In this document: piece by piece, positions 6,508 through 55,165 of the stretch | How positions within the stretch are numbered: position 1 is the first letter of the stretch | Layout of the letters: the number at the start of each line of letters is the position of its first letter | From: Raillietiella orientalis | Taxonomy: Eukaryota | Assembly (NCBI GenBank): GCA_036172245.1 | Contig: JAYWIR010000013.1 | Coordinates: forward strand, 372,001-436,000 | Reading direction: 5' to 3' | DNA length: 64,000 bases | The notes under the pieces: model-generated | What the model saw: only the letters and a program-made list of their open reading frames with translations | Told to the model about the DNA's origin: nothing | Databases searched by the model: none | Program-made: the position numbers and the translations under genes

Positions 6508-7413
6508 CGTATACATGCCTACATCTCTACTATGTTTGAAAATCAAATACAAATTTGGGTTATTCTGTATGTAGGAAAACCCTTATTTAAAGTTCCTTGC
6601 TTTGGTCATACACCTCTCTGGAAGTTATCTTTCAACTCATCAGGGATGTCAATTCTTGACATATGCTTCAAAATATGCACCCTACTACATCCAAACTGCA
6701 TATCCGTTTCCACATCCACACCTCTTCCACTTCCACTATCTATCCACGGACATCGCACGTACTTCGAAATAAGCACATTGCCCATCGTATCCATAAGCTC
6801 CAAGTACGCTCCAGAATACCAACGAACGCCACGTACTCCAAAATACTTAAACCAACAGCCAGCGGCTTCTTGGTACGCTGCTGTACTCGCATTAATTTTC
6901 TCGTCTTCCACATTCCATGGCTTCCCGAAAAACTCAGGGCGATTCGCGCTTTGTACCAATGCTACATTTCGATAAGACACCTTCATCCCTAACTCCTCGG
7001 CCATATTTCCGACAGATAATCCTAATGTCAAAAGTTTCACCTTTAACGCAAGACCTTTTCACTTTCACATATCCGAAATACCTTGCCATTTGCTCGAAGT
7101 TCAATAACTTCAATAACTCCGATAATTTCCAATACTGCTCGAAGTATGTAAACATCCACGAACAATTTATAGCATCACCATCCATAACCATCTGCGAACT
7201 ATAGTGCGTAGCTTGCAACAAGCCAGATCGTTCCACCACGCGAGTTACTTTGCCATACTTCCAACGAGGGTTCCTAATAATTCTCATACACCTACGCTTA
7301 GGATTAAACCTACGTCGCCTCTTGTACGTATTGTATCCTTTACGAACTAGCCTCTTTCGCTTTGAGACGTACGACGCCTTCCCTAACTTCCGCTTTCGGG
7401 AGTGATACGACAT
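6505..7413 (-). pseudogene. cap: CRESS virus capsid protein (frameshifted)
   Basis: Arg/Lys-rich N-terminus MSYHSRKRK..YKRRRRFNPKRR; FEQMARYFGYVKVK, KYVRCPWIDS and C-terminal YRIT/LYLIFK segments typical of circovirus-like capsids. Frameshifts near 7040 and 6555; internal stop at 6606-6608. Confidence 0.82.
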
Positions 7414-7655
7414 AGATACTACCATTCGGCTGCTTGACAACCTACTGCCATTTTTTCCATATCCCCCCACCCCTTATTACTCCGACCCGGGTGGTGGTGA
7501 GCTACGCCCACCCGACTTACCAGATTCTTCCACGAGATCGGGTTACACCAGCCACAAAAAACTGGAAGCCCTCAAGGCTTTCCGCATACTTCAAGCCCCT
7601 CACGATTGCGGACTTTCGCCACATGGCCACTATCGCGTTGCCAAGATCGGTTACT

Positions 7656-7687
7656 CAGCAATCTGGGTAATACTCGCCAGATTGCTG
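7656..7687 (-). other. Rolling-circle replication origin stem-loop
   Basis: Perfect 11-bp stem CAGCAATCTGG/CCAGATTGCTG. The loop carries nonanucleotide GAGTATTAC (NANTATTAC) on the minus strand, 7675-7667. Iteron-like AGATCG(G)GTTAC at 7535 and 7644. Confidence 0.93.
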
Positions 7688-7712
7688 CGCCACAAACTAC
7701 CCACTTACGGAG

Positions 7713-7720
7713 TATATAAA
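7713..7720 (+). promoter_or_regulatory. TATA box of viral rep promoter
   Basis: TATATAAA lies between the ori and the rep ATG (7779). Confidence 0.55.
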
Positions 7721-7778
7721 CCACCTAAGACGACCGAGCCACAGTCATAACCTTCAGTGAATTTCAGCAACCACCACT

Positions 7779-8705
7779 ATGCCTTACGGTCTTTTCTTTA
7801 ACTGGTGTGTTACATTCAGTAATTACACAGAAGAAGAATTCGTTAAAATTAAATCACGGTGTCGCAGCAACCGCAAATTCTGCGTTTTCGGATGTGAAAC
7901 CGCATCCACCGGTACTCCGCACTTACAAGGTTACATGCAACTCAAAGAGCCAAGAACCCTGCCAGGACTACACAGGAAACCGTTCACCAAGTCACATTTG
8001 GAGAAAAGCCGCTGCACAGCACTTAAGGTACTGCACCAAACAAGATAAAACTGCTTGCACTTACGGTGCAATTTCAAATGCCGATGAACCAACATCATAC
8101 GAACAGGTTAGTCACGTGACCGCATTCTCATGCCTAACCCATTTCTCTTTCAGATTCTCGAACTCTTCGAATCTGGCGCAGAGGAAAAACTTATACTCAA
8201 AAATCTTCCAAAATTCTACGCCAGAAGCATTAACTTCGTCAAAGAATGCTTTCGGTTATCCAGGAATCGCACCCACACAATCGCACCCCCTAGCGAATCT
8301 GCGCCTCAGAAAATGACAGATGGATATATTCGACATTATTCGCAAACCACCAAGTGAAAGAATCATATACAGGTTCTATGATACGATAGGCAACGCAGGC
8401 AAAACAAGGCCAAGTTCTTATACTTGAAAAAAGGAGCCATTTACATGCACTCTTGCCGGAAAGCAGATGCAGCCCATATGTATCATGGTGAATCCATTAT
8501 AGTGGTGGACTTCACAAGAGACAATCAAGAGCGTGTACAGTACGGATTTATAGAGTCCCTCAAAAATGGCATCGTTTTCGACTCGAAGTATCAGGGATCT
8601 ATCAAATACTTTGACACACCCCACACCTTCATATTTGCCAACTGGGAACCTGATTACTCCAAAATGAGTTCCGACAGATGGGTTGTCAAGAACATTTCCA
8701 GACCC
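7779..8705 (+). pseudogene. rep: CRESS Rep (HUH endonuclease + SF3 helicase), spliced, with 3 frameshifts and 1 stop
   Basis: Motif I WCVTFSNY, motif II TPHLQGY, motif III YCTK; LRK*Q (probably WQ); Walker A GNAGKT (8389-8406); Walker B IIVVDF; motif C IFAN; SSDRW. Confidence 0.92.
8107..8153 (+). other. Putative 47-nt spliceosomal intron in rep
   Basis: CAG|GTTAGT donor, CTAAC branch point at 8134-8138, TTTCTCTTTCAG acceptor. Removal joins ..TSYEQ to ILELFESG.. in frame. Confidence 0.75.
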
Positions 8706-11700
8706 ACAGAGAGCCATAATACATCGTGGACTATGAATGAGGAAGGATCCATTCTCTTATATTTCGGAAAAGGTATCGATGATCAACAGCGATTCTGTCA
8801 ATATTATCTCAGTGAATTTACTTTCAATGACTTATACCCGGAATTGTCAAGAAAGTGACAAAGAGGGACTTTCATTCCTGAGTTCAACAAGGAGAGCGAC
8901 AACAAGTGTTTAGTGCAGAAGTATGCCCCCTTTGTTGCTCATGACGTGAAAAGAAACCTTAGCAACGCAGAAATGTAATTTATGACCTCAGGGATTCCAG
9001 GACAGAGCATCCTGTGAGCTATGAGATCTGAAATCGTTGGTGAATTTCAACTGTATGAGGCGAAACTAGGGAATCGACAAATTCTTTGTAAATCCTGAGT
9101 AGCTGCTTTCATATTTCTTTCATTCGCTTTCCACACTAAATTAAGGGCTACTCTTTGATGACATCCATCCAAGCAGCTTTCTAATTCAGACCAATGGAAG
9201 GTAGTTGACGCAAAGGTTTAAAATCACATAGGATCATAGACATATCTGCATCAGAAGTGGGTGCTCGCTTAATTGCTTCCTGTGTATATCCGTAAATGTG
9301 CAATCACGTCATACCATGAAAGGGAAAAGTGATCGTAGTTAATGCATTCATTCGTTGAGGTCATTCTGCATCTGTTTCATCGTTAAACTACAGAGGATCG
9401 TAAATCGTATCAAAACATCACGCATTCTTCAAATTCAATCAAAGTTTTCCAGGGAGGATGAAGGATTTGGCTTATTATAGTTGAAAGCACAAATTCATGT
9501 ATGGCAGAGAATTTGAGCAGAGGTTTTGAGCAGAGAATGACTGGATTATTGTAACCTTGTTTTATCTTCGATTCTCCAGATCTTTTGGAACTATGATACG
9601 ATATTTATAAGAAGGGCATGCTGCTCAATGAACATGTTGGTTAAAACAACTGGAGATCAAAATACGAAGAGTCACGACGTTAGGAGTACTCAGAAATGGT
9701 ATTCGGTCTGACATAACTGCAACAGTGTAGCGATTCTCATGAACTGTTTCGACTGATTACAAGTGCCAATGAGTCACTGGTTTTTTAATTTCTTTTAATT
9801 CCTTGCAAAGAGAACCATTTGTGTGGGCAGGGATAAATACGTTAATTCTCCGTTAATGTTGTTTACGTTAATACGTTAATGTTGCTTCCATTCAATCTTC
9901 ATGTTGCTTCCCTTTCCTATCTGGTCCTTCTTTGTGCCTACACCTCGTTTCTGGACGCATACAGATCTCTCATGGGCAGTGGTGCTATTCCTGTTTATTT
10001 TGTCCGTAGATTCATCATCGTTCTAGCGTCTTCACGAGCGGAAATTCTCAGTGTTCCAGTTACTATTAGGTACGATCAGCATGAAAGCAAACACAGAACA
10101 TCAAACATATCAGCATGTCAGGAGAGAACAGCAGAATTCTACAATGTGACGGTTTGATTTTATAGATTCGATGACACGCAAAAGCCACTTGGTGGTACTG
10201 CCTGAGACGAATTCTCATTTTGCATGCCCCAGTCCTTTTGTTTCACTTAAATCGAAACATAGACACAGAGTTTCTGACAGATCAGGCAATGATTATGCCC
10301 CAGCAAAATGACTTGTCCCTAGATGGAAGTCGGAATGCGAAAGTGATCAAACTGCTTTTTACCGAGATGCTTTCCTCTCCGTTGAAGTTGTGAGTTAAGA
10401 CGTATCATGATTAGAGAACATTTAACACACCTCTTTAAGATTTTTCCATAGAATTGAAAACTTGTTCTTTCCCTGTCTTGCTGAAAATTATTCAGGTGAT
10501 ATCGGGCCACGCGTAGTCTTGGAATTCTTTTTAGAAGCCACTATCATCCCATTTTCAGTTTAGATAACTGTTAAATTATTGTTTCCAATATTTTTCATGC
10601 GTTTGAAGAAAAAAAAAGGAAAGTCTAGCATCGGAATCTCAAAGGGTTACCCCCATCTACTGCACTTCTTCTATTTGTATGAAGGAAGCAAGCAAAGAGT
10701 TCCTGTACAGCATATATCGTTAACAGTTCTGAAAGCAATTTCAAATAACAGGGAAGGAGAAAAAACGGGTACTGAAGAGCGAGATGTGAAACGAATGAGA
10801 TAGCAGAAGCTGAAGTAGGCGAAGGAGGAGCAAAGAGAGTTCCACTTGAGGAGTGTGAGAGAGTCTGCTCTATTGAGCAGTTTCCAAGGATACCACGGTC
10901 ACGGGCTTCTGAGGATTAAACGCTCAACAAGTCAGCAGAGATGCTCGAAAGAGAATGCAGTGGATTAATGAAACAGCCTTTACTGACGTGACTCATCCTT
11001 GCTTTGCAGTTGTTGTTTTTTTCATCAAAGATTCTGGCTTGGATACATTTAAAGGGGGCTGCAATCATTCATATATATTTTTAGATGCACATGACAACGG
11101 ACTGCATGCGAAATTTCCATGGATAGTATTCTGGAGCTACAAGACGAATCGGAGTTTCCTTTGGTTACTGTGCACGTGAGGAAGACGGCAGTTCCATTAA
11201 GAGGGAATCGAGAGTGAAATCGGCAACGCACTTGCAAACTTCCCTTCCTTTGCAAGTTGTGGAACGACCACGCACAAACACCGTTCGATTTTCACCTTTT
11301 GACAGTCATTCTGCTTCTTTTGTGGAACCTGCATTCCAATTAATCCCGTGTTCACAACGAATGCCCCGAAGAACTCCTCAGGCACGGCCGCCAATAAATT
11401 CAGTCCACATTGCCACCGATGTCCACGCGGTTTACGCGAAACAACCTTAAGAGAATTCCAAACGGAAATTCATTTCGTTTGCTAGTTTTTCATTCAAATA
11501 GTCGATGTGCGATTCAATGATGATACTAAATCTGCGCTGGACTTCCGTCTTAAGATCGTATCCGAAACCGAACTGAAAGCAAATGAAAGTGATGTTTCTC
11601 AACGAGAAAGAAATGGAACATATGAATAGCGATGAAGAGTGATTTCAGTGTGTACGAGAAATAGTAGAGTTTAATTCTAGAAGAAGAAATGAAAATCAAA

Positions 11701-14700
11701 TAATGCAGTGAATATGAATTCCTCTAGCTGTAGCAGAGAGCAATTCCTTTGAAATTCCTTTAGATCATAAGAGAAATTGCACACCTCTTTTAATTAGATT
11801 ACAGCAAGCGTTCGTCCCCTTTTGTTTTTGGGTAGACAATAAAGTTTCGAGAAAATGCTCTAAACACTATTTTCTAAGGGTGGGGTTGCCCCTTGAAAGG
11901 TATTCTTAGGAAGCCTATATAATGGTGAGCTAAAAAGTGCTTTAAGGGATGAGTCGTCTTGGTGGCGTACTTCAATCAACTTTTTTCTTTCGATTGAGTT
12001 GAGATGAACCGTCATTTTATTTTGTTTTCGTTTGTTCGAAAGGACGTTTAATTTTTCGACAACGTTAGAAATAAACTGAATGTGCTCTGATAGGAAGATA
12101 TCCAAGGTCGTTGTCGATAAGGGACGACATTAATTCTTACATATGTTTTGTTTCATTTACAAGGAACGAAAACTCGTATCGAATCAGCTGATGCTTATAA
12201 CTATTCTATTCAGATACTAAGTTTACTAAAAGATACTCGTAAATTATAAACATTTGCATAATTCCGAGTATCATTCATAAAATCATATAAAGCAAAGAAA
12301 ATCTGTCTCACTTTCTTGGGTTGATTTCCATGCCTCACGATGCGTCTTGAATCTATCTGGACCATTCTCTTTGGTCTGCCTTTAGTTACGCTTCCATCAG
12401 CTGAAACGATTTTTCTCGTTTCTAAGTGGGAAAATACCTTAGCTTGATCTTTTAATTGGTTGTATACGGTACCAGTTTTAAATTCCACCTTCCTTGGAAT
12501 TCTTGGTTCAAGATCCTTGCCATGAAGACTCGATGGGGAATCAATGCTTGAGAGTTTTATGCACTAGAAATGTGATTCTTTTAACAAACTTTCATAATTC
12601 TCTTTCAAAGGAAACTCTCAGAAGTGATTGCGACCCGTGTATCAATTCAGAAAGCAAAACTTTTTATTGGATGTAATCGAACAGTTTAAGCATAATCGGA
12701 TTCGTTCTACGGAACTTGAATAATCTGCATTATGCTACAGAAATAAAATGCAAGGGAACAGTAAACTTGGATCCACGTGCAGTTCTATAGAGTAATAAGC
12801 CGTACTGATACAGTATGATCTTTGTTGGTTTGTTTTTTTATTTCAGATACAGGTGGTTTGCATTCTTCCTGTTCACGAGGACATCTGATGTTTGCTTCTT
12901 CCTGCAAGAGTGTATAGAAAGCACCGACAAGGATGGCATTACTCCTTTCCCGAACAGATGGGAAGAAGAAGGATAGACTCGAAAAACACATGTTGCTCTG
13001 AGGTCAACATGAATGTTTATGAATGTTTTGGTCATTTCCTAAACTCCTCTGTTTTCATGTTGACCCTTCAATGTGTGCCGGGTGAGCGCACCATCACTGA
13101 TTACTTGGTGAATCGGGAGCCGAACATGAACGCATGCATTCTCCATGTAACATTTAATACTTTGATTATCGAAAAAAAAAAAAAGAATACACAAATTTAC
13201 ATTATAGAGAAGATTGATATCCAAAACCAAATACGGTTTGATTTTGAATACTTCGCATTTACTTCCCATTTTATTCACGGGATCTGTCGTATCAGCATCC
13301 CGAGTAATGTAAGTTTGTGAGAAGAGGTTTGAAAATGGCTTTTATTTGGGTTCATACTTCGTCGTCATACCACGCGCTTCTGCAAGCGAATGAAAGAACT
13401 GTTCCAACTGAGATCACTGTCCTCGGATTTCCATCTCAGCTGCATATTTTCAAAGGCTAAGCAGTGTAGTTTGGAGGAGTGCCACACTTCAGCTTCTGAG
13501 ACTGTTTCGCAATCCTCCCGAAACCACTGTAACCAAGAATCCCACAGTATGCATGCCTGGACTCTCGCAACATTTTGCTGATGCTTCTGCGTATTGCTAC
13601 GCACACAACGCATCATGTGAGGAATTCTCATCGCTCTTGGATTTTTCATCGTGGATCCATAAACTGTTCACTTGGTATTTCAATGGTTCTTTTGCTTTTG
13701 TTTGAACCTCTGGAAAAATGGCATCGACAGACCCTCTGTGTGGACACATCCGGTATCCGACACTCACTATCTATTAAATAGCAATATGTACCCCATAATT
13801 CTTGTGATTTAAGCGTCCAAAGGATAGATTGGGATCAGCCTGGGCTTACGTAAACTACCCGCGTTTGAAGAACGGAGACGCCTCCTGGATTCAACCAGTC
13901 GTTCGCGCATGGTAGTTGAGTATGGAAACAAGTGTTCATGCAGCCGGATCCACCGTTCCAATTTTAGTACATGTACAGCCGAAGCGTGTACAAGACAAGT
14001 TATGTACAGACAAAGAATGCTTCCTATTCTAGAGACAAAAAGCTTCCTTTTGAAACCTTCATTCCTGTCTTCCAATCTTGTATCTTTGTTTGTTTTTTTC
14101 TATTTTTTTGATGTACACCAGCAGTCAATACTGGAAACTCGCGGTCATTAGCTGATACGGGCCTGGTTATGGATCCTCACTCAGTTATATGACTTTTTTC
14201 CCCTTCTTCACTTGAGTATTTTTTTATGACCTCCAAATGCAGAATCGTTGTTACTATAACACTTGCAAGCTTCCGCAGATTCGATTCCATGTTATAACTT
14301 GCCATGCTTGCATCAAGGTTATCGCATTTCTGAAGCACCTCGTTTAAATTTATTGAATTTCTATGCTTTCATCAATTAGAGAGGACGAAAAGACACTGTT
14401 TTTTGCTTTTTTTTGTTTTTTTTAGTTGTGTAAACTTTGGGTTCTTTTTTCAGCAGAAATCTACTGTTCTCTTAGAAAAAGTATCCATTACTATAAAGGA
14501 GAAGGATCACTGATGATTTTCAGCTGCTTGAAAGTGTACTCGATACTTTGCAGTAGCCATGTAAAAAATGGATATCAATCAGCAGGAAATGGAAAAACAA
14601 AACAAAACAAAACAAAACATATGAGGCAGTACATTCACTGTCATCATTTCGAGATTATGTCTGCATGCAGAAGTCCAAGAAAATTTCCTTGTTACAGAAA

Positions 14701-20596: not shown

Positions 20597-20712
20597 GCAC
20601 ACGCTTCGGCTGTACATATACTAAAATTGGAACGGTACAGAGAAGATTAGCACGACCCGTGTGCAAGGACGACACGCAAAATCGTGAAGCGTTCCACTAA
20701 AAACAAAAAAAA
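20597..20712 (+). ncRNA. U6: U6 snRNA retroposed copy (probable pseudogene)
   Basis: Full-length U6 match (ACATATACTAAAATTGGAAC, ACAGAGAAGATTAGC, GACACGCAAAATCGTGAAGCGTTCCAC). A-rich tail instead of a T-run; flanking direct repeat AAATCCAT at 20588-20595 and 20710-20717. Confidence 0.9.
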
Positions 20713-20829
20713 TCCATGCCAGACAGCGTCTCTATTTTTGTTTCGGATCTACGCAGCTGCTGTTTCCGATTCCTTATTTATTGATCCGAATAGTCTCTAG
20801 AAACACGGACCAACACGGTGTACCTTCAA

Positions 20830-21845
20830 GGTGGTTTCTGCAGGGGTATTTATCGAAAATAATGAAGATGCATTCCTGTGGAGGAACACGTAGTTTCACC
20901 ACGTACTACAAAAAAAAACACACATTTAACTTGCGAAACAGTGGTACGCATACCGGCGAGGTTCACATGGGCAGCAAAGGGAAACAAAAAACCGAAAACA
21001 AAAACAAACAAAAGGACGGTAAATTTTTTGTCGGGGATGAGTGGAGGGGAAATCGAGGAAGGGATCACTGTCTGCTGCGAGGTGCCCTCTGCATCCTGTC
21101 CAGGATGTTGGCAAGTTTGCTCCGGACATTGTCCAGGTGAAGCCATCTCGTGGCGGTTCTCAAAAAGATTCTCGTCCAGTGGACCGCGTCCCTTCCATTC
21201 TGGCCCCTTCTCCGGGCGTTCCAGGCCGACGTGATCCCTCGAAGACAGCAGAGAACTGCAGGGGTCGCGGCTGGCGGCAGTGTGGCACGCACGAAAAGTT
21301 TCAAAATGTTCCTGGGGTGCCCAGCGGGATTCTAAGGGTCGTCGCAACGCGATCCCAAAGGGGTCAGAGGGCAGCACAGTCCAACAGCAGGTGCGAGAGG
21401 ATCTCCTTCTCCTCGCACCTGTCGCACTGAGCTCCACATTCCCCAGCGTCCAGTGGTGTAGGTGCTCTTTGCATGGGATTCCCCCATGCAACACCAGCAG
21501 CTCCAACTCCTCCCACTTAAGGGGGAGGGCGCCATTGTTCCAGCACGCTGGGGGTCACTTCATGTCCCCTGGAAGGATAGAGAGCAGCTCGCCCCGGCGT
21601 GGGTAAGTCCTTGGGATGGAGCACGGTGTCGCAGAGTCCGTGATTTCTCGAGTTGTCCACAGACCCAGAAGTTTTTTCCTTGCTGTGATGCAGCAACAGT
21701 ACACCTTCCACATTGCTGGATCGTCGCTGTCCCTTGCTTCCTTCAGAAAGGACAATGCTAGGCTAAAAGGGGTAAACGAGAAACACAGCATCTTCCATGG
21801 GTTGCTGACGATCTTCTGCAGCGACCGACTAGCGCTCCTGCCACG
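20830..21845 (-). mobile_element. Tx1/L1-clade non-LTR retrotransposon, 3' fragment (copy A)
   Basis: Degenerate LPLKW..LLVLHGGIPC..HHWTLG zinc-finger region, LCCLRGI, CAGTGATCCCTTCC motif and the family 3' UTR. Confidence 0.8.
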
Positions 21846-21859
21846 CTGAAAACAACCGA

Positions 21860-22350
21860 ATTCCGCCTCGCGGCGCGGTGGTTGCTTCTTTATTAATCCG
21901 AATGGTTTTTAGAAACACGAACCAACAAGGTGCACCTCCACATACCGTCCTTGGAGCTCCCACTGGGGGCCACGCTCTCCAGAATTCATTTCGAACGCTT
22001 TTCACTTCGGATTGTTCCACTTGAAAAATGGGGGACAGCAGGGCGTTTGGCACTCGGCTGGCCACGTATCTGGCTACTTCACAGGATGTCAAGTCTGGTA
22101 CACATCCGCCGTCGCGGATTCCGACGTCTTTCAAGAGCAGTGCTCGCAAGATCTCTGTTGCCAGCGCACCCTTCTCGCCTTGGAGGAGGTGGAAGCACGT
22201 ATGGTGCATGGTGCTTGTAACGAAGACCAAGGTCGCTCGTGCCACCGCGGAGTTATTGATGGAACCACTCCATCGACGTGGAAGAGACCACAGTCTTTGC
22301 CTTCTGCTTGTCTTGTGGGCCCATCACCTGTCGAGCCACTCTCTATCCTT
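21860..22350 (-). mobile_element. 3' end of a probable second, divergent non-LTR family (copy B)
   Basis: ORF ending ..NEFWRAWPP.. followed by AATAAA. Its terminal segment 21890-21940 recurs at 20778-20828 (43/51 identical). Confidence 0.4.
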
Positions 22351-23269
22351 GGTTAGAGGTGCAGTGAGCAGTGGGGGTCCCCTTCCTTCTCCGCACACAC
22401 TTTTTAGGGCTCCACCTGCACTCTCCCGGCTGGGTGTCCGAGTCGGGAGCCGACAAAACCATTCCCACCCATCCAGCAACAAAGTGATCGTGATAAACCC
22501 CATCTTCTCTACGTTCGACCTTTCACCCTCTTCCCACTACTGCATCTCACCACATCCATCATCATCGCATGTCCCATACGAATTCTCCCATCAATAACAG
22601 CACTTGTTTTGACCCAGTCAGATAAATTTCCATGGAAAGACACTGGAAACGACCTCGTACTCTCGAACCACTCCCTCGATCAGAAATTTTCATTTCCCTG
22701 TTTTTCACTCCTATCCTCATTTACTAATCGGAACTCGCTCCGTACGCATTCCCCCCATCATCTGCACACCCTCTCATATCCCTAGCCACCCAACCATGAA
22801 TCCTTAAGCAAACTCTTCTCCATCTACCAAAAACCTCTCTCAGTTCTTCACCCACTTTCATCCCAAAAGTAACCTCGGTATTTGTATCCCTCTTTACCAC
22901 TTTCTCTCTCTCTCTCCTGGAAACCACAAGGTCCCCTTTACACAAAGAAATGACCACGGTGGCACGTCTCCAGCCATTTCTTCCTCCATTCGCTGCCGTT
23001 CTGCGACAGCAGCGGATCGCTTCGCGTGTCAGGTGGTGATTCCGTTCTCCGGACCACCATGCCGATCGCTCTGTAAATCATCTGAGCCACAGTAGCACCG
23101 CCAGCGGGTGCCACGGCTTTTTGCCCTCCCCTCCTCTTCAGTGGATGCCGTCGAAGGTGGTGAATTCCAGGCGACGACGACGTATCATCCAGAAGCTCCC
23201 ACGGAGAGCTCCAAAGCTTTCGACGTCCTCGGTACGAATGAAACAGAGACAAGAATTCGCAACCCCACT

Positions 23270-25455
23270 TTGGGGCCGCCAGCCGGGCTGGGAAGGGACA
23301 CCGGGGAGGGGAAGGGGGCCCTAGCGATCGCGGTCGATCTCCACAAGGCGTTCGACTGCGTGGACCAGGATCTCCTGCTGGAGCTCCTGGGTCGCATGGG
23401 CTTCCCACCCTCTCTACTCTCGTACCTGGGCTCCTGCTGGCGGAATGCGTTAATCAACGTCTCTTTCAGTGGACAAATAGCGTACGTGCCGGTACGGCGG
23501 GGCATACGGCAGGGCGATAGCCTTAGTCACCTGCTCTTTAGCACCTACTTTGAGTTGGTGCTGAGAGCGTACAGGGTGATTTTGGCTGCCTTGCCTAGCT
23601 CGTGCCCCGGCACGCCCGCTGTAGCTGCATACGCCGACGATCTTCTGCTGATGTTGCCCATGTCCTCCCCGGCAGCCGCAGTCGAGGATTTCTTCGATCT
23701 GCTAAGCCGTGGGACTGGACTCCAGGTAAACAAGGCGAAGTCATCGGTGGTAGCGGTGGGTGCGACGTGGGTTGGACGGCCTGACTGGATCCGCTTGGGG
23801 ATCCCCACGGCCAGGTACTTGAAGTACCTGGGTGTCCCGTTGGGGGACTTCTGCCTCGCAGAAGCCTGGTCAGGTCGTCTCCAAAAAGTGGAGTTGGCAA
23901 TCGGCCCGTTCCTGGAAGGCAAGTTCCTTCTGCCGGAACGGGCCGCGGTGTGGAACGCTTCGCGGCCCTCATCCTCCGCTTCTTGCTTTTTGTTTGCCCC
24001 GCCCCCCCCCAGTTGAAGAAGAGGACTAAAGACCTCCTTCGCATAGCCCTCTGGGGCAGCGGGAGGCCTCGTGTGCCTCTGAAGGATTTATGTGCTCCGC
24101 GTCGGGACGGCGATCTTGGCCTCCTGACACTGGAGCGCTTGTGAGATCCAGCTGCGATGGCGCACCCTCGCCATCGCAGCGAAGTTGTGGAGCACCCCTT
24201 GATGCGTTCCGGCCCGCCTCCTCGCCAGCCGTGTTTCCAGGACGCAAGGGCTTGCGTCCTATCTTCTGTGCCGCGGCCGGAAGGTCAGAAGATGCGGCCT
24301 TCTCCTCGGACGCATGGAAGCCCTGGTGAGAGAGAACGGTTGGATAGTATGCAGCCCAGCCAACTGCTCCGCCTGGCTGGAGGAAACCGTTGGAACGTGG
24401 GCAAAGTTGAACAACAGTAGAGAAGAAAACTGGAACCGCTTGCGATTCGGCCCCAACGCCTGCTGCACACTGCGGAGCACTCTGGAGTGTCCCGCCAGGA
24501 GCACGTGGGCGGAGACCACCCCATTAGCTTCGACGCTGCCCTTTCTACGGAGGGCCCTAACCAGCGGCCGGAAGCCGAAGTGGCAAGTCTCCTGCCGTAT
24601 CGCAGGCAGAGAGAAGAAAATGAGCGGTTGGACCATGGGAGAACTGGCAGACGCCACGACCCCGAGTGCCCTCCCGCGTGGAATTCTAAGATGAAGTGAG
24701 CTGCTCAGCATCCCGACGGATGACCTGAAGTGGCCCTTAGTTCTCATCGGATCCAGGCTTCTCCCCCTGAAGTGGCAAGAGTCGGCGCTGCTACTGTTGT
24801 ACTGGGGCTTACCCTGCAACGCGCGCCGCTTCCACTGGACGCGGGGAAGTGTAAGGCCTGAGTTTGCGAGGTGTGGGGAGCGGGAATCGCTCCCCCACCT
24901 ACTTGTTGACTGTGCTGCCCTCCGAACCCTATGGGAACGGTTCGGGACGACCCTCGGGCTCCCGGTGGGCAGCCAACCCAGAGACGTTTTCCGTCATCTC
25001 TTCGTGCGTGACGCCCTGCAGCCAGCCGCAGCCGTGGCAGCACTCTGCTGCATCCGAGGCATCGTGGCGGCCTGGAGCGATGCACGCGACGGGGATTGGA
25101 CGCTATCGAGAGGGATGTCATCCCGTATGCGGTCTGCTTCATGCGGAGAGCTGCAGGATGGCCCCAGCTGGGTTCAATGCTGATGGACCTCGAGGGAATC
25201 CTGAGAAGGTTGGACCCTCCTAACAGTGGAATGTGATCCCTTCCCCTCCCTCCAAACTCTTTTTGTTTTTTCTTTGTTTTTATTTTATTCTTTGTTTCCT
25301 CCCACATCCCCCTCCACTGCCGAGGAGAGTCACGGCGGGCTGCGTCCCGGCGTCCCGGCAGGTCCGGCGTTGTTAGGCCGTTAGTGGGGCCTCGTACCAC
25401 GTCTTGTAGAGTTTTATTTTTTCAATAAACGCCCCGGTCATACCCGGGTGGAAAC
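23270..25455 (+). mobile_element. Tx1/L1-clade retrotransposon, 5'-truncated (copy D): RT + C-terminal zinc finger + 3' UTR
   Basis: AVDLHKAFD, RRGIRQGDSLS, AYADDL, KYLGVPLG, CARCGERESLPHLLVDC; several frameshifts and stops. Confidence 0.92.
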
Positions 25456-33072: not shown

Positions 33073-36000
33073 TTGAAACCCGGTTGCGCCGGGACGTTTA
33101 TTTTTTCAAATGAACTTATCTAAACTGTGACTGGACCAGTAGTCCAGCCACGCCCTAGAAAGTATCAGCTTGTCGGGCTACCGGTGCGCAGACCGGCGCG
33201 GTCAACCTCGGCAGCAGAGGGGAGGGGGAATGAAACAAAAAGAAAACAAAAAAATAAACAAAACTGGAGAGGGAGCGGGAAGGGATCACTGTCTGCTGGG
33301 AGGGTCCGTCATCCTCTGGAGGATGCCGGCAAGCTGTTGCTGAATGGTGGATGTCAGATGGGGCCATCGCGTCGCCATCCTCAGAAAGCGGGCGGCATAC
33401 ACGGTGGTATCCCTGTCGCTGGATCCTCCCGTCACTTTACTCCATGCCAGGACGATCCCGCGTAGGCAGCACAGGGCTGCAAGCGACGCCGCTGGAGGCA
33501 GGGCGTCTCGGACGAAGAGGGGGTGCAAAGCGTCTCTGGGGTTGCCTCCGGGGATACCCAGGGCCGCGGAAAAGCATTCCCACAAGGGACGGAGGGCAAC
33601 ACAATCCACTAACAGGGGGGGGAGGTATTCCCTCTTCCCGCACCTGACACAATTGGGGTTGACATCCCCCCGCGTCCAGTGGTGTCGGCGGGCGTTGCAA
33701 GGGAGGCCCCATTGCAACACCAGGAGTGCCGACTGTTGCCACTTCATGGGGAGGGTGCGCGAGTCCATGAGCACCGAGGCCACTCAAGTAGCTCGCCCCA
33801 GCGCAAGAGTCCGTGTGGGATGGTCCTCGGGGTCGCAGCTCTGGTCAGCTGACCCGTTCTCCAAACCCCGATCTTCTGTACCCTGTCGGCGATCTTGAAG
33901 GTAACCTCCCATTCTTTCACGACGTCGCTGCCCAGATGTTTCCATAGGGTAGACAGTACCGCAGCAAGGGAGGTTCTTTCTGCCCACGCTCTCCTTCGGG
34001 GATCCTCGACGATTTCTCGGAGCGTACGGTGGGCGTGCAGCCCGAACAGAGCTATTCGCTCGTGTTGCGGGCTCTGCTCTCGAGTCATCGCCCACGTGCG
34101 AACGGTTTCCTGCAGCCAGGCAGTACCATTCGCGAGGCGTACGAAGATCGATCCCGTGTTGGTCTTCACGAGTTTGACCGCCCTCCGAAGCCGAATTCCG
34201 CAGTGGCAGATGGGCCTTCGGAGTGCAAAGTAGGACGAGAGTCCCGCATTGCCGGTGGCCTGCTCGACGAGGAGACGTGCAGGGACGCACCAGGGGGTGC
34301 ACCAGTTCTTTGCCATAAAGGCAACTATCCGAAACCGGAGCTGAAGCTCCAGTCGCTCCAGCGTCAGGAGGCAGACCACCATCCCGACGCGGAGCGCACA
34401 AATCCGCAAGACGGACTCGGGGTCTCCCTCTTCCCCAAAGGGCGATCCTTAGGAGGTCCTTCGTCCTTTTTCTTGACTCCGCTGAGGGGGGGAGAACAAA
34501 AAGCAAGGGGCGAAGTAGCGGGGCCGCAAACGCGTTCCAAGCCGCAGCCCGTTCCTGCAGGAAAAACCTGCCGTCCTGGAACGGGCCGATCGCCGCCTGA
34601 GCCTTCTGAAGGCAGCCGGACCACGCTTCCGCAGGGGAATAATCCCCCAACAGCACACCAAGGTATTTGAAGTACCTCACCGTGGGGATCCCCAAACGGA
34701 CCCAGTTCTGATGCCCTGCCCACGCCGCTCCGACTGGCATTACGGACGAGTTCGCCCTTTTCACTGTTAGTCCTGTTCCCCTATTCAGCAGGTCGAAGAA
34801 CTCCTCGACCGCCGAAGCCGGGGTGGACACAGGAAGCAGCAGCAGCAGGTCGTCCGCATATGCCGAAACCGCAGGTGTACCGGGACAATCGCGCGGCAGG
34901 AGCGCCAGAGTCTCCCTGTACGCTCTCAGCACCAATTCGAAATAGGCGCTGAAGAGCAAGGGGATCAGGCTGTCTTCCTGCCATATGCCGCGTCGCACCG
35001 GTACGCCGTGCACGGTCTGCCCGCTAAAAAAGACGTTAATGAGCGCATCGCGCCAGCTGGAGCGCAGGTAGGCCAACAAAGAGGCCGGGAAGCCCAAGCA
35101 TTCCAGAAGCTCCAGCAGGAGATTCTGGTCGACGCTGTCGAATGCTTTACGCAAGTCGACAGCAACCGCAAGGGCCCCCTCCCCCACCCGACCATCCCGT
35201 CTCTCACCGACGGACGCACCGGAATTCCGGTTGCTCAATAAGCCCCTTCCTTGTTGGAGCTCTAACCATGTGGAAGCGTGGAACAGGTTCGCCTCCATGC
35301 TTCGCCCGGGAAGAGCAAATGTCTGTTCCGAGCTGATGAAGGAGTTGGCAACCCGTCCCAGACTCTCTGCCACAGCTTGGCTAGCAACTTGGCGTCCGCA
35401 TTCAATAGTGTGATGGAACGCTCAGATCTCCTCCCTTAGGGAGGAGCCGCACCTTTGCTGAACAAAACGAGGCGGGAACGTGACCTGTCTCGCGAATCAG
35501 CAAGGTGAGCTGATGTACCAGGGGAGTAAGCTCTGCCGAGAAAGTTTGATAAAACTCCGCAGGCAGGCCGTCCTCCCCTAGAGCCTTCCGCCTCTTGAGC
35601 TTTCCGATGGCCGAGATGATCTCGCCCATCGTGAAAGGCTCGTCGAGGCTCCTTTTCTCCTCCTCCCCGGTCGCTGGAGCACCTTCCGGAAGCAGAAGTC
35701 GTGAGACATCCTGCTCCGGAGGCGCCCTCGCGTACAGAAGGGAGTAAAATTTTCGTACAATCCCGCGCTTCTGAGTAGGAGCCGAGTGCTCCCGGCCCTG
35801 GTCGTCTTGCAAGCTGGCCGACCCGGATTGCCAGGTTTGCCTCTCGGCTCTTGCTCGATACTCCGCTAACCTGCGCATGTCGGGGGTTCTCGCGTAACGT
35901 CGGGCCTGAAGATAGCACCTTTCGTTACGCGGCCCCTCCCCAAATCCCACAGGTAGGCGATGCAAAGGGAACTGTTTGCAGGGATGCTGCGCGGGTATGC

Positions 36001-48700: not shown

Positions 48701-49950
48701 TCCCCGACGCTCTGAAAAGTCTCCTCCCGCCTTCACGGGCAGCGGAACTCAGCAGCAAGGGCGGCCTGCTGCCAAGGGCCCGCGTCCCTGGGAGGAGCCC
48801 GGGGCGGGCCCTCGGTTCCCGGCGTGGGGAAGATCCCCTTTCGGATCGCCGTGGGCCAGACCGCCTTGCCATTCCGCCGGCGAGGCGGTGTGGTTAGGAC
48901 TCGAGGGATAGCCACAAGCCATAGGAGTCCAGGGGGAGGGCGGAGGAGTGGACCCAGCGAGAGCCCAAGTCTGGTGCGCCTTTTCCTGCGCATATGGTGA
49001 CCTCAGAATGAGAGCCCCTTGGCACCGACTTCATTCGTTCCCGCTGCAGAAGAGCCAGGCACGCTCGAGGGTTTCCAGCAGTCCGAACCGCAGGACGGAC
49101 AGTGAGTTCGTCCGCGGAAACGAAGCTCCCGATGGGAAGAACCCATTTCAGGAGCAAGGAGCCAATCCGAGAGGATGCTGCGAGAGCTCGTCCAATGGGA
49201 GCGTGGAGGACATAATGGACAGCCAATCAACGCGGGAACCCTGAGGATTCTGCCTGTCCGCGCTTTCCCGGACGTCCGGGATTCGCTCCTCACCAATCTC
49301 CGGAGGAGCGGAAGCTCAGGTTCATGTATCTGAAGCAGTGATCTTCCTTCCTCTACCTCGAGACACGTCTGGACATGGAATTGAGATTGATGAAGGTCAT
49401 TGGTCAGAGACTGGGCGGTCCGTGCACTTGCATTGGGTCATGTGGCTTTGCCCCGCCTTCGCCATCTTCACTGGACTGTCGGCACAGTTTTCGAGGTGGA
49501 AGTCACCTTGCGCTCTGGGGGATCAGATGGGTGGTCAAATGAGGACGTGGATGAAGGAGGGATGGAGAGCCTCTGCGTGGTCTCCAAGCAGCTGTTCACC
49601 GCCAGCGGGGACGCTTGCTGGGAACTGGAGCAGCGGTGGTAACGCTGCCGGGGTTCGAATGAAGCCGAGGGCCCTGGGATAACGAGCGGGGAGGCGAGGA
49701 ACAAACCTACTCTCGTCCCAGAAAGGCAGCACTGCCATGGGTCGCTTCCCGGGAAGCGTCGGAGGAGGCACCTCGGGAACAGTACGAGAACTGGGCAGGA
49801 GCACGTCCTCGGACGTGGAATCCACCCGACCTTGGCCCTGCCCGACCAAGCGCTGGAGCAGCCAGAGACAGCTCGTTTCTGCCTCGCATCTTCGCTGAGA
49901 GCTCAGGTCACCCTGCTGACCTCCTCTTACCCCTTCTCCCTTCAAGGGAG

Positions 49951-51289
49951 ACCTCACCCGGTCACGCCGGGGCGTTTATTAATAAACACTGTGCATCTGC
50001 GGTACTAGGCCCTGCTACGGCCAATAGTTCATGGGACCTGCTAGGAAGCCGGTTCGCAGACCGGCTTGACTCTCCTCGGCAGCGGGGGGGGGGGTAGGGG
50101 GTAAAACAAAAAGATAAATAAATGAAACAAACAAAAAAAAAAGAAACTATTTGGGAGCCGGGAAGGGATCACTGTCCACTGAAGGAAGAGACAATCCTTT
50201 CCAGGATGCCCTCGAGGTCCCTTTGCACGGCTCCCAGAAGGGACCAGCCGATCGCGATTCGCAGGTAGCGACCCGCGTGTACGATGGGGTCCCTATCGCT
50301 GCTTCCTCTGTTGGCTGCGCTCCACGCGGCGGCAATCCCTCGGAGGCAGCAGAGCGCTGCCAGGGCTGAGGCTGGTTGCAGGGCGTCTCGCACTAAGAGG
50401 AGTCTCATAACGTCTCTGGGGGTGCTGCCTACCGGCATTGAAAGGTTCGTAGCAAAACGTTCCCACAAGGGCCGGAGGGCACCGCAGTCCACTAACAGAT
50501 GGGGGAGGGATTGCTTCTCCCCGCACACTGCACAGTTCTGTTCAACATTCCCCCACGTCCAGTGGTGGCGGCGCGCGTTGCAGGGAAGACCCCAGTGCAA
50601 CAACAACAGCGCCGTTTCCTGCCACTTTAGGGGTAGGATTGATGAATCAATGAACGACGGGGGCCACTCTAGGTCATCCGTCGGGATGCCAAGCAGCTCG
50701 CCCCATCTCCGTAGTCCATGTGGGTGAATTCTTGGGGTCGCGCCGTCAGACAGTTCCCTCATGGTCCACCCAGTCAGATCCTTCTCTTTGCCCACTATCC
50801 GGCAGGAGACTTGCCATCTCGGCTTTCGAATATTTTGAAGCGCCCCACGTAGGAAAGGTAGCGCGTGGCCAGTGGGGTCGTCTCCGCCCATGTGCTTCTG
50901 GCGGGACACACGATCATGTTCCGCAGCGTGCAGCGGGTGTAGATGCCGGTAAGCAGGCCGTTGCAGGATTCTTCACTGATATTGTTTATCTTTGCCCACG
51001 TTCCAACTGTTTCTTCCAGCCATGCGCTGGAGTTGGCAGGGCTGCAGGTCATCCACGCGTTCTCCTTTGCCAGGGTGGCCATGCGTCCCAGGAGAAGGCC
51101 GCATCTTCTTATTTTCTGGCCGGGGCACAGAAGAAAAGACGCAAGTCCTTCAGTCACGGACACACGTCTGGCGAGGAGGCGGGCCGGAACGCACCAAGGG
51201 GTGCTCCACATCTTCGCCGCGATGGCTAGAGTACGCCACCGCAGCTGTGTTTCCACGCGCTCCAGCGTCAGGAGGTTAAGACCTCCTGA
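49951..51289 (-). mobile_element. Tx1/L1-clade 5'-truncated copy (G) with 15-bp TSD
   Basis: LPLKWQETALLLLHWGLPCNARRHHW..CAVCGEKQSLPHLLVDC and the family 3' terminus. Direct repeat CTCCCTTCAAGGGAG at 49936-49950 and 51290-51304. Confidence 0.9.
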
Positions 51290-51299
51290 CTCCCTTCAA

Positions 51300-51900
51300 G
51301 GGAGTGTGGATGCCAATTGTGAAGAGTGCGGGAAAGGGAGACCCTCCCCCACCTACTTATCGAGTATGTCGCCCTCCGGTCCATGTGGGATCGACTCTCG
51401 TCGATTGTGAACATTCCGGTGGGCGACACAACAGACATTTTCCGTCGCCTCCTGATGAGGAACGCCCTGCCAGCAGCCGCGTGCGTTGCAGTTCTCTGCT
51501 GCATAAGCGGAATACTCCAAAAGTGGAAGGCATCGAGGAGAGGACATAGAAGCCGGAACGCCATTCCTTGGGCAAGCCTCTCCATGGAGATGCCACCCGG
51601 ATACGCCGAGACGTTTATTCAAACTGTCCTTAAGGTCATTACAAATACGTGGTACAAGGCCCCACTAACAGCCAACATTTTGCAGGATATTCGTGAGGAA
51701 GATCCTCTCCATGGAGAAGGCATGCCGATGGCGCCGGTTAAGGGCAATTCAACCGGCACTTGCCCGCATCCGAAACCGGATTCAGAGGACTCCTCCCGGC
51801 GACCAGTGATCCCATCCCATCCCTCCCCACCCCATAAAACTTTTTCCCCCTGGCGTTTTTTTTTTTTTTTTTTCGTTTTCCCGTCCGTTTCGCCCATGGA
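51300..51900 (+). mobile_element. Tx1/L1-clade 3' fragment (copy H), interrupted by a 113-bp insertion
   Basis: VDANCEECG/ETLPHLLIE..VAVLCCISGI; CAGTGATCCC motif near 51805 followed by a T-rich UTR. Confidence 0.8.
51591..51703 (-). mobile_element. 113-bp extreme 3' tip of the same family, inserted antisense into copy H, with 14-bp TSD
   Basis: TSD CCTCTCCATGGAGA at 51577-51590 and 51704-51717. Insert ends AATAAACGTCTCGGCGTATCCGGGTGGCA. Confidence 0.88.
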
Positions 51901-52799
51901 GAGTATGTGTTCTGGAAGAAGCAATGCCCAAAAGACTGAATTTTAATATAACAAATTATGTACATTCGTAGGCGGCCGCCTGGATCGGCGGGAAGGCGCC
52001 ACTCCGCGGGCGCCGCTGGTGCAGCTGGCGCGCGTTCCCTTCGTCTTCTGGGACACCCCCAAACAGGCCCCGCGTCTTTAGGTCGCGTTGTACCCGCTCG
52101 CGCTTCGAGGAGGGAGGGGGAGCACCTTCCACCCCCTGTGGGTACTTCCCAATGAGCTGCAGGGCTCGCAGCCGGGTCACCGAAGGGTTCTCCCTGAGCC
52201 ACAGCGCGTGAGCGGCGTTGGCGGTGCAGGCCGACAGGAGAGCTCCCGTTCATACCTCCTCTGGCCTCAACCAGCTGCGGGGGGCAACCTCCTGGGGTGC
52301 CGGAGAGCCAGCAGGCAGTGCTACCCTCCTGCCCGGAGGCGCAAACAAAGGGGGTGTAGCCGCTCATCGGTAGGCAACGTTTTTAGGAGCGCCACGTGAC
52401 CGCCGCAGAGCGCCCCCGCTGATCAACGCCGCAGCAATACCCCCCCTTTCCCCCCACACGGACCATGCACCAACTGGGCTCTCACATCTCCGGCAGCGCC
52501 TGACCGCCTCCGGACAGGAGGTTGCGGTGCCTGGTCAGCTGGCAAGAAACCGTGAGGTGGTCGACCGCCTGCGTTCCCTGCACGGTTGACTGCATTCCCC
52601 GTGAAACGAAGAGGCGAAGGGGGGACGCCAGCGAGCGTCTCCCAGGGGCGACCCCCCACATCCAGTCAGCAGGAGGCGGGTCTCCCTTGGCGAGCCACCC
52701 TACTGGAGAGCAGCGAGTATCGGCGCCCCTCCCGCGCAGGCGCAGGCGAGGGCGGGGTCAGGACTGCGCTGCCCGGCCCGCCCTATCGCGTCGCCGTTT

Positions 52800-53715
52800 A
52801 ACATTCGGGTGCGCCGGGGTGCTTATTGTAACAATAAACAAACATGTGTAGGACCATCGACCCTAAAACGTCCGAAAGAGTTCGGAACTTGCCGAGTGAC
52901 CGGCACTCAGGCCGGCGATGTTAGACTCGGCAGCGGAGGAGGGGAGGACAAACAAAAAGAAAAATAAATGAAAATGCTATTTACAAAAATAGTGAGGGCT
53001 GGGAAAGGATCACATTCCACTGCAGGCCGTCCTCTACATCCTTTCCAGGATGCCAGCAAGTTCCATCTGCGTATGTGCCAAATGGGGTCATCTGGCTGCC
53101 GTCCTAAGGAAGCCCAGGGCGAAGCAGATGGCGTCCTTATCGTGTTGTCCTCTTGTTCCGTAGCTTCAGGATGCCACAATCCCACGTAGGCAGCAAAGGG
53201 CTGCTAGGGCTGCAGCAGGCGAAAGGGCATCGTGCACAAAGAGGCGCTTGAACACGCCTCTGGGAGAGTTCACTGGTGTTCCTAGGGCCGTTGCGAAACG
53301 CAACCACAGGGGTCGGAGGTCAACAAGCAGGCGGGGGAGCTGATTCCTGTTCCCCACACCTGACATAGTTCGAGTCCACAGCCCCCAGATCCAGTGAGAT
53401 CGACGGGCGTTGTGGGGGACTCTCCAGTGCAACACCAGGAATGACAACTCCTACCACTTCAGGGGGAGGATCCGGTTCTACAGAGCTGGGGGCCACTAGA
53501 ATTCTTTTGGCGGGATTCTCAGCAGCTCGCCCCAGCGCAACAGTCCCTTCGGTGGGGCACTTGGTGTCGCAGCGTCAGTTAGCTGGCCACCTAACTTCTT
53601 CATCCGGAGACCAATTGTGCAACGGATCTCCTATTTGGCCTGCTGACTACTGCCCGGGTATTCCCTGAGAAAGGGCAGTGCCTCGGCTAGGGAGGTTCTT
53701 TGCTCCCACGCACAC
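52800..53715 (-). mobile_element. Tx1/L1-clade 3' fragment (copy K)
   Basis: LVLHWRVPHNARRSHW, LFVHDALSPAAALAALCCLRGIVA; structured 3' UTR at 52800-52935. Confidence 0.82.
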
Positions 53716-53734
53716 GTAGTGGACTACACGATAA

Positions 53735-55165
53735 CGTCCTGCAAGGAGCTGCCCTTTGGGGCAACGGGAGGCCCCGAGTCCGCTTGAAGGACTTGTGCGC
53801 TCCGCGTCGGCACGGTGGTCTCGGCTTCCTGACGCTGGAGCGGCTGGAGCTTCGGCTCCAGTTCCGAATGATGGCCGTTGTGCCGGAGTTGTGGTGCACC
53901 GACTGATGCATCCCTGCACGCCTCCTCGTCATACAAACCATCGGCAAGACGGGACTCGCGTCTTTTCTTGCACTCCATCGCTCCCGCATCAACCGACTGT
54001 TGCGGACTCCAGCTACGGTGGGTGGCTACTTTGATTTGGAAAAATCAAGGATTGATCACCTGTCGCCCGCGAACGGTAGTGCCTGGTTGCAGGAAACCGT
54101 TCGCACGTGGGCACAGAGCGGCATACAACCCGCCGAACAGGAACGATGGTTCCTTTTCGGGCGCTACAGAAGCTGCAAGCTCCGAGAGATCCTGGAGGAT
54201 CCGAAGAAGAGAGCGTGGGCAGGAAGAACCCCCCTCACTGCTGCGCGTTGTATGCCGCACTGGCCTTCCTAGCGGAAGATCAGGACATCGATGTTGCGGC
54301 AAAGTGGGAAGTTAACATAAAGATCTCCGGAAGGGAGAAGACGATGGGAACGTGGAAGACGGGCCAGCTAACTGACGCTGCGACCCCGAGTACACCTCCT
54401 CATGGACTTCTGCGCTGGGGCGCGCTGCTCGATGTTCCGGTGGAACATCTGAAGTGGCCCCCAGTGCTAATGAACACCTCCACCCTCCCCTTAAAATGGC
54501 AGGAGTCGGCACTACTGTTGCTGCACTGGGGACTCCCGTGCAACGCCCGCCGACATCATTGGACCTGGGGAGCGGTGAACCCCAACTGTGTTAGGTGTGG
54601 GGAACGGGAGTCCCTCCCCCACCTCCTTTTGGATTGTGTTGCCTTTCGGCCCCTTTGGCTCCTCTTCGCCGCGGCCATCGGAATCCCCTGCGGCAACCCC
54701 AAGGACGCTTTGAAAGCCCTCTTCGTGTCCGACGCCCTCCAGTCTGCGGCCTCGTTAGCAGCCCTGTACTGCCTTCGCGGGATCGTCGCCGCTTGGAGCA
54801 AGGCTACGGGAGGACCTCGCGATAAGGGTACCATCCAGCACGCCGCCCAATTCCTGGAGAGAGCGACGCGATCCATCAATACGAAGGGAGCTTGCCGGCA
54901 TCCTTGAGGTCATCCACGAAGGATGCAACGGCCCCAGCAGCAGTGATCCCTTCCCTCACCCTCCCACGTTTTCTTTTGTTTTTGTTTTGTTTTTTCTTTG
55001 TCCCCCCTTCCCCCTGCTGCTGCCGTGGTGGGCCGAACTGGTCTGCGAACTGATGACCCGGCAGGCTCTGTGTTGTTTCTTTGGGTGTGGCTGGATCACT
55101 GGTCCGGCCACAGCACTTGTAAAAAGTCTATTTTTCAATAAACGCACCGGCGACCCGGGTGAAAA
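53735..55165 (+). mobile_element. Tx1/L1-clade 3' half (copy I)
   Basis: ALWGNGRPRVRLKDLCAPRRHGGLG, CVRCGERESLPHLLLDC; family 3' terminus at 55016-55165. Confidence 0.9.

Follow-up and report, generated by a model that had tools for sequence, protein, structure and literature searches.

A structured, tail-less 3' end in diverged L1-clade LINE families

Stem-loops of the LINEs UnaL2 and ZfL2 are bound by ORF2p (PMC1636434, PMC4176376; the 'TX1' of the latter source is part of mutant names and not the element). Within L1, a covarying 3' hairpin has been described for a monocot lineage (PMC3472496), and Table 1 of that source also includes L1 families that lack a 3' repeat (9 of 233 in plants, 5 of 15 in algae). 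In the prevailing view, L1 gave up recognition of its RNA by structure for the more relaxed kind by poly(A), and the stringent L1-clade cases that we found in print rest on comparison of plant or algal sequences. A human L1 with a swapped endonuclease was not redirected, and poly(A) priming was suggested as a possible cause (PMC4014453). An L1-type enzyme with a structure-defined start, and with targets that differ among families, would bear on LINE retargeting.

Our analysis concerns a stretch of 64,000 nt ("the window") from the 210-Mb genome of Raillietiella orientalis. A preliminary description of its sequence had listed six copies of a conserved, covarying 3' structure in a Tx1/L1-like family with little or no poly(A), and had proposed a possibly undescribed module for reverse transcriptase (RT) recognition or 3'-end formation.

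LINE copies in the window and their class

Between ~20 and 58 kb, the window is a GC-rich island (about 60%) amid AT-rich DNA, and this island holds nested LINE fragments. All six listed sites exist: 25316-25454 (+), 33215-33073 (-), 50085-49951 (-), 52935-52798 (-), 55016-55165 (+), and 20975 to about 20825 (-), the last badly decayed. Each is a 3' UTR on the same strand as the adjoining ORF2 fragment, and the six represent diverged L1-clade LINE families. A seventh 3' end was absent from the earlier list, and the terminal loop cGTAT ascribed to the listed copies belongs to it. The features are as follows.

23252..25227 (+): 5'-truncated ORF2, from RT to C-terminus, of the copy ending at 25454 (Pfam RVT_1, E=6e-14)
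25233..25315 (+): 3' UTR start motif (GTGATCCCTTCC) and T-rich/C-rich tract
25317-25322 with 25356-25361 (+): outer stem P1, from fold and covariation (span 25317..25361 including a 5' bulge)
25334-25339 with 25346-25351 (+): inner stem P2, from fold and covariation
25340-25345 (+): CTGCGT hexaloop of P2
25384..25400 (+): hairpin P3, in the short, weak form of the 25-kb family (9-13 pairs in other families)
25424..25454 (+): terminal cassette, with AATAAA at 25424-25429, then 3 nt, then hairpin P5 at 25433-25448
25449-25454 (+): 6-nt tail ending in AA, without poly(A)
33073..33289 (-): 3' UTR of a second family, with a T-A closing pair, a long P3 and AATAAA paired in P4
49951..51289 (-): 5'-truncated copy of a third family, with a 15-bp target-site duplication (TSD) at 49936-49950 and 51290-51304
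51590..51703 (-): seventh 3' end, a truncated copy of about 113 nt running from P3 to the terminus, loop CGTAT
52798..53747 (-): truncated copy of a fourth family, with a C-G closing pair, loop CTGAGT and a decayed P5
53706..55165 (+): truncated copy of a fifth family, inserted antisense at about codon 587 of a relative's ORF2
20825..21824 (-): old, decayed copy of a sixth family, loop ATGCGT, P5 mostly lost

The ORF2 fragment at 23252..25227 is 71% identical to an intact ORF2 (L043:5075-8719), and the ORF2 upstream of the UTR at 33073..33289 reaches at least 35980. The copy at 49951..51289 has the six-base tail, but its last bases are GT. The seventh end is accompanied by a 13-14-bp TSD and sits within another copy. 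The flank of the fourth-family copy is a relative's ORF1, antisense, and codon 587 or thereabouts is a recurrent insertion site of the fifth family. The decayed 20.8-kb copy is bracketed by a 59-bp direct repeat (83%; 20770-20828 and 21882-21940); the usual TSD measures 11-18 bp.

Copies with open frames elsewhere in the genome encode an ORF1 with CCHC knuckles and a 1215-aa ORF2, in which Pfam finds an APE endonuclease (Exo_endo_phos, 5.5e-11), an RT (RVT_1, 2.3e-22) and a weak C-terminal zf-RVT (0.021). Database relatives of ORF2 are 23-34% identical, the best named matches being L1/Tx1-type proteins of fish, frog and alligator (30-33%). The closest relative with a solved structure is human L1 ORF2p (E=8.5e-52); R2 reaches only 7e-16. 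In a quick tree without curated Tx1 references, five RT rows from this genome form one long branch (1.56) that has no firm sister group. Because the protein joins APE, RT and zinc motif, and because its RT matches L1 better than R2, these similarities place the families in the L1 clade in the broad sense. TSDs and variable 5' truncation, as in the L1 clade, are present, and so is the target-site preference of the Tx1 clade. The 3' poly(A) tail and T-rich primer of relaxed, mammalian-type L1 are missing. The tail has the conserved stem-loop, fixed loop and covarying stem of stringent-type LINEs, and a single 6-nt tail in place of the short terminal repeats that lie behind the stem-loop in L2-type elements (UnaL2).

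The window also holds an endogenous CRESS-DNA-virus-like stretch (6600-8860), with a Rep N-terminus (+; Pfam Viral_Rep, E=5e-11 at 7761-8045), more Rep-like pieces to 8858 and, by eye, an arginine-rich capsid-like frame in two pieces on the minus strand. Short frames at 405-2845 (-) resemble, by eye, dynein heavy chain exons; Pfam gave no significant match for them. A diverged full-length U6 at 20597-20703 (+; Rfam, 84.5 bits) is followed by an A-rich tract and is retrocopy-like, and a 42-nt U6 5' fragment lies at 13952-13993 (-). If the LINEs studied here made the A-tailed U6 copy, strict stringency would be weakened. A U6-LINE chimera at 20.6 kb was considered and rejected because the two lie on opposite strands.

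Conservation and covariation of the 3' UTR

The order of parts is as first described: T-rich tract, outer stem, bulge, inner stem with a CTGCGN loop, AATAAA and terminal hairpin. The T-rich/C-rich tract is mostly unpaired in family folds. At the window sites, the hexaloop is closed by G-C in the 25-kb copy, by C-G in the 52.8-kb copy and by T-A in the remaining four. For a broader comparison, 252 motif matches were taken from 220 loci and the window; 234 with a T-rich tract upstream were kept and clustered to 83 lineages. The hexaloop was placed automatically in 62 of these, and 21 in which it was absent or mislocated were left out. Over the 62 lineages, its letters are conserved in 60 (C), 62 (T), 61 (G), 54 (C) and 56 (G). 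The loop-closing pair is T-A in 25, C-G in 19 and G-C in 9, and 54 of the 62 rows pair. Its covariation (G_apc 57.9) exceeds the 99th-percentile maximum of 39 among 300 tree-based replicates. Thus, the change of closing pair noticed among the window copies is significant beyond a tree-aware null; under the same null and for the same lineages, none of the remaining eight tested pairs, the others of P2 included, is individually significant.

Covariation is also seen for the helices as a set. Cells of P2 are paired at 85%, compared with 76% when shuffled (a control that ignores relatedness) and 22-51% when slid. When 31 representatives chosen by hand were aligned without regard to structure, both sides had changed at 19 of the 29 pairs that make up the five helices, and pairing amounts to 70% for P1, 88% for P2, 73-77% for P3 and 94% for P5. 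Two of the helices go beyond those first described: P3, a hairpin of variable sequence, and P4, which pairs AATAAA in some families. Among 22 multi-copy families, P2 keeps at least five of its six pairs in 20, the loop being taken as the best-pairing motif candidate, and P3 is better than shuffles (z <= -2) in 11. The outer stem is recognizable in 15 and missing in 7; it is therefore not universal. AATAAA is predicted to be paired at >=0.9 in 8 of 17 scorable families, a count made without a shuffle control and after exclusion of 5 of the 22 for a mislocated hexamer. In one lineage of two copies, P2 has no 3' arm, and the distance of P2 from the element end is about 95-150 nt. Folded singly, the six window copies give z values of -0.45, -3.56, -0.54, -1.63, -1.30 and +0.17, no better than shuffles in five of six, with -3.56 being the value of the 33-kb UTR; thus, the support for structure is comparative.

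The terminal cassette behaves differently from these helices. None of the five pairs of P5, which had been presented as covarying, changes on both sides; the hairpin is nearly invariant, that is, conserved but not covarying. Nor does AATAAA immediately precede it, as had been stated, since 3 nt lie between them. The exact terminal motif has 2,142 matches genome-wide and none for a reversed control pattern. AATAAA is exact in 143 of 172 ends and lies 23-25 nt from the end in 171. Between 21 families, the cassette is 82% identical, a value inflated because the ends were selected by the same motif, compared with 61% for the end of ORF2 and 53% for the adjacent 30 nt. A perfect P5 is kept in 15 of 16 family consensuses, even though it has decayed in 46 of 161 copies. 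Such an invariant hairpin could be a signal in sequence or DNA instead of a fold.

Most mutations of the terminal hairpin in 161 copies of 16 families are C>T or G>A (33 of 56), which fits decay by CpG methylation. In several families (for example, window 33095-33115), TTTATT lies 5' of AATAAA and forms a palindrome with a poly(A) signal on both strands, which could halt the host element's transcript in antisense insertions. A motif scan of metagenomes gave 17 matches; all of them lacked both ORF similarity and the upstream module, and they were taken as chance.

From family to family, P1 and P3 differ or are lost while the terminal cassette stays constant, as would be expected if the RT needed just the terminal 30 nt and P1-P3 had another role, in RNA stability, export, translation or the packaging by ORF1p. 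We find this division of labor improbable, in that known ORF2p-binding loops likewise keep their letters while the stem beneath them covaries (PMC1636434, PMC3472496).

An end exact to the base might also be produced by a self-cleaving ribozyme. However, Rfam returned only seven matches at E up to 10 in the window, none from a ribozyme family and none overlapping a 3' end, with U6 alone above threshold; the comparison proposed in the preliminary description therefore gave neither a ribozyme nor a histone-type 3' stem-loop. The folds contain simple hairpins only, and by eye there is no HDV-like double pseudoknot. A ribozyme origin thus appears extremely unlikely. An ENE-type triple helix with the U tract was also rejected, because the folds show no G-rich partner strands. 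The conserved U tract may pair with an RNA tail.

The element end and choice of target

The elements stop six bases past the terminal hairpin (TG-NN-AA). The run of A at the end is 2 nt in 142 of 234 ends and never exceeds 5. To sample copies independently of the motif, 53 UTR starts were drawn from the window, from contiguous blocks and from loci selected by RT; the hairpin end is present in 51 of them and a poly(A) tail in none. The two exceptions are the decayed 20.8-kb copy and one interrupted copy, and two long A runs in this sample are located upstream of the hairpin. The position-ordered sample comprised the first ~50 of 93 exact ends on contig C1. The claim of little or no poly(A) was thus borne out, and copies elsewhere, picked by RT or by position, do not carry normal poly(A) tails (0 of 53).

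A seeded search for duplications, in which at least 11 matches were counted, found them at 49 of 234 ends compared with 8 of 223 in the control. Of these, 25 begin directly past the six-base tail, 6 share one base with it, 16 begin one or two bases later (chance matches, decay or an extra A) and 2 are local duplications. Exact starts past the 6-nt tail number 39, with 11-18 matches and inserts of 132-5917 nt. AA closes the tail in 33 of these and is present in the target in one, a tandem copy. Therefore, the terminal AA is element-derived, either encoded or the first residues of an RNA tail. None of the 39 duplications begins with AAA. Pairing of poly(A) with T therefore cannot be the basis of priming, and a T tract does not serve as primer. 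The ends of one family read CAT, and the T is missing from the target in L217 (one case; two others are ambiguous).

These ends bear on whether the cassette is instead a host cleavage and polyadenylation signal, with AAUAAA directing cleavage about 22-24 nt downstream, the added tail beginning with the terminal AA, and the hairpin having a part in processing. The 23-25 nt between AATAAA and the end match normal cleavage spacing, and the A-rich ends and U-rich tract upstream also fit. However, a host signal leaves unexplained why tails are never copied, and AATAAA itself is predicted to be paired in 8 of 17 scorable families. The downstream element would need to come from variable GC-rich targets, and the CAT-ending family does not conform in its one clear case. 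This explanation, which we consider unlikely, is compatible with an RT-defined end but credits the conservation to a host factor.

Insertions are strongly biased in location. Of 224 ends with flank, 112 fall in relatives' ORFs, 81 of them antisense and 78 at 13 recurrent codons, and a further 16 adjoin another copy's 5' end; this sample is enriched for LINE islands, and in the position-ordered set 16 of 52 are in ORFs. When similar hosts are collapsed, 65 non-redundant ORF2 insertions give 86 same-codon pairs compared with 2.6 expected. The sites within sister ORFs are family-specific, several lie in conserved catalytic motifs, and tandem arrays carry a TSD between copies (L041-L080, L171-L220). 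Repeated amplification of one composite was rejected as the general cause of common sites because a single site can be occupied in hosts that are <85% identical (8 such at codon 311 and 9 at codon 1068), although some clusters with a single host type may be duplicates. Full-length 5' ends have in common a GGACGTG motif and then a pyrimidine run, 15-25 nt past the nick (L043:3286, L049, L051:3055, L054:3284, L060 and others). We take this motif to resemble the downstream promoter element of insect LINEs.

In off-site insertions, the first 2-5 bases match those of the family's hot spot. This likeness would be expected if read-through RNA carrying the donor's downstream target paired with the nicked primer, thereby fixing the end and reinforcing each family's target choice, while the hairpins merely recruit ORF2p. 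Annealing of the 3' UTR to the target has been proposed for SART1 (PMC7265360). The preference in our families, however, extends upstream of the nick, beyond the reach of read-through RNA: C occurs at -3 in 6 of 6 insertions of one family and at -2 in 6 of 6 of another. Because it lies on both sides of the nick, the preference points to the endonuclease. Target annealing reportedly plays a similar role in R1Bm. Among the 39 exact-start insertions, 3' transduction was not found, which also speaks against such pairing, and we give it little credence.

The reading that we favor, with moderate confidence, is that the module is a stringent-type 3' tag with a fixed start of reverse transcription, acting in cis in a radiation of L1-clade LINEs. 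ORF2p would bind its own RNA by the structured tail with its invariant AATAAA-hairpin cassette, probably assisted by the CUGCGN hairpin. The endonuclease would nick a site of about 7 bp that differs among families. The RT would then begin cDNA at a fixed point, six bases beyond the terminal hairpin, both on transcripts that run on as poly(A) and on read-through transcripts. A start set by the RT is favored because poly(A) priming would copy tails, and priming at the end of read-through RNA would transduce flanks; neither is seen. We infer from these patterns that the hairpins form in RNA, that ORF2p is the binder and that P5 sets the start. Covariation and tail-less ends thus make an RT-recognition or start-site module the best reading, partly in line with the first proposal, with the binding itself presumed.

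More speculatively, the terminal hairpin may serve as a ruler that makes pairing between RNA and primer dispensable, leaving the endonucleases of an L1-clade enzyme free to diverge while a shared cassette permits cross-mobilization. If so, sister endonucleases released from the poly(A):T-tract constraint could take different targets, resulting in a network of cross-ORF insertions, and the common cassette would let families mobilize each other's RNA.

No SINE partner was found among 229 ends, which are about a tenth of those in the genome. ORF2 precedes 211 of them; of the 18 others, 8 are near a TSD, 8 match ORF2 by tblastx and 2 are unexplained, and no shared non-LINE head was found among the 18.

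Comparison with known systems

The module is not described in the open literature that we searched; Repbase reports, subscription papers and supplements may describe tail-less Tx1 ends. The suggestion that it is undescribed holds for this combination of features only, in that a covarying 3' hairpin in the L1 clade has been reported (PMC3472496). At the level of sequence, the finding is real and well supported; its function is putative. The radiation provides open-ORF copies, a base-exact end and natural compensatory variants, making direct testing possible.

The closest systems are Monocot-1a L1 (LINE1-1_ZM with ZmSINE2/3) and Chlamydomonas L1-1_CR (PMC3472496, PMC3747384). They are likewise of the L1 clade, with a 3' end conserved far above the body and a hairpin with compensatory changes and fixed loop letters, and their function was likewise inferred from sequence. 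They differ in having, as described there, one hairpin in about 45 nt, a UCU loop and known SINE partners, and L1-1_CR has poly(A). In the families described here, as many as five helices span about 140 nt, the loop is CUGCGN, the end is fixed and tail-less, and no SINE was seen.

UnaL2, ZfL2-1 and ZfL2-2 share with these families a bulged stem-loop, a conserved loop and a 3' tail without poly(A) (PMC1636434, PMC4176376). However, they belong to the L2 clade, the loop is GGAUA, and the stem abuts the UGUAA repeats at which the RT starts. Our families have no terminal repeat, and their bulged stem-loop lies farther from the end, about 95-150 nt upstream.

Target-specific Tx1-clade LINEs (Tx1 in Tx1D, Tx1-Mar in Mariner-N4_AMi, Keno, Kibi and Koshi; PMC4494074) also have an APE endonuclease, fixed sites in other repeats and tandem copies with a TSD between them. 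Their targets, as given in that source, are DNA or LTR transposons, snRNA genes and microsatellites, rather than sister LINE ORFs, and their SINEU passengers carry poly(A); our families are classed only as broad L1 clade. Zepp and ZeppL of green algae (PMC8226300) are L1-type elements that likewise insert into existing copies and form clusters. Zepp differs by its poly(A) end (PMC3472496, Table 1) and by one cluster per chromosome, whereas here there are many families, each with its own site, mostly antisense and dispersed too. In the sources cited, covarying 3' hairpins are thus known from monocot L1s and L2 LINEs, and the precise tail-less end is the variant here.
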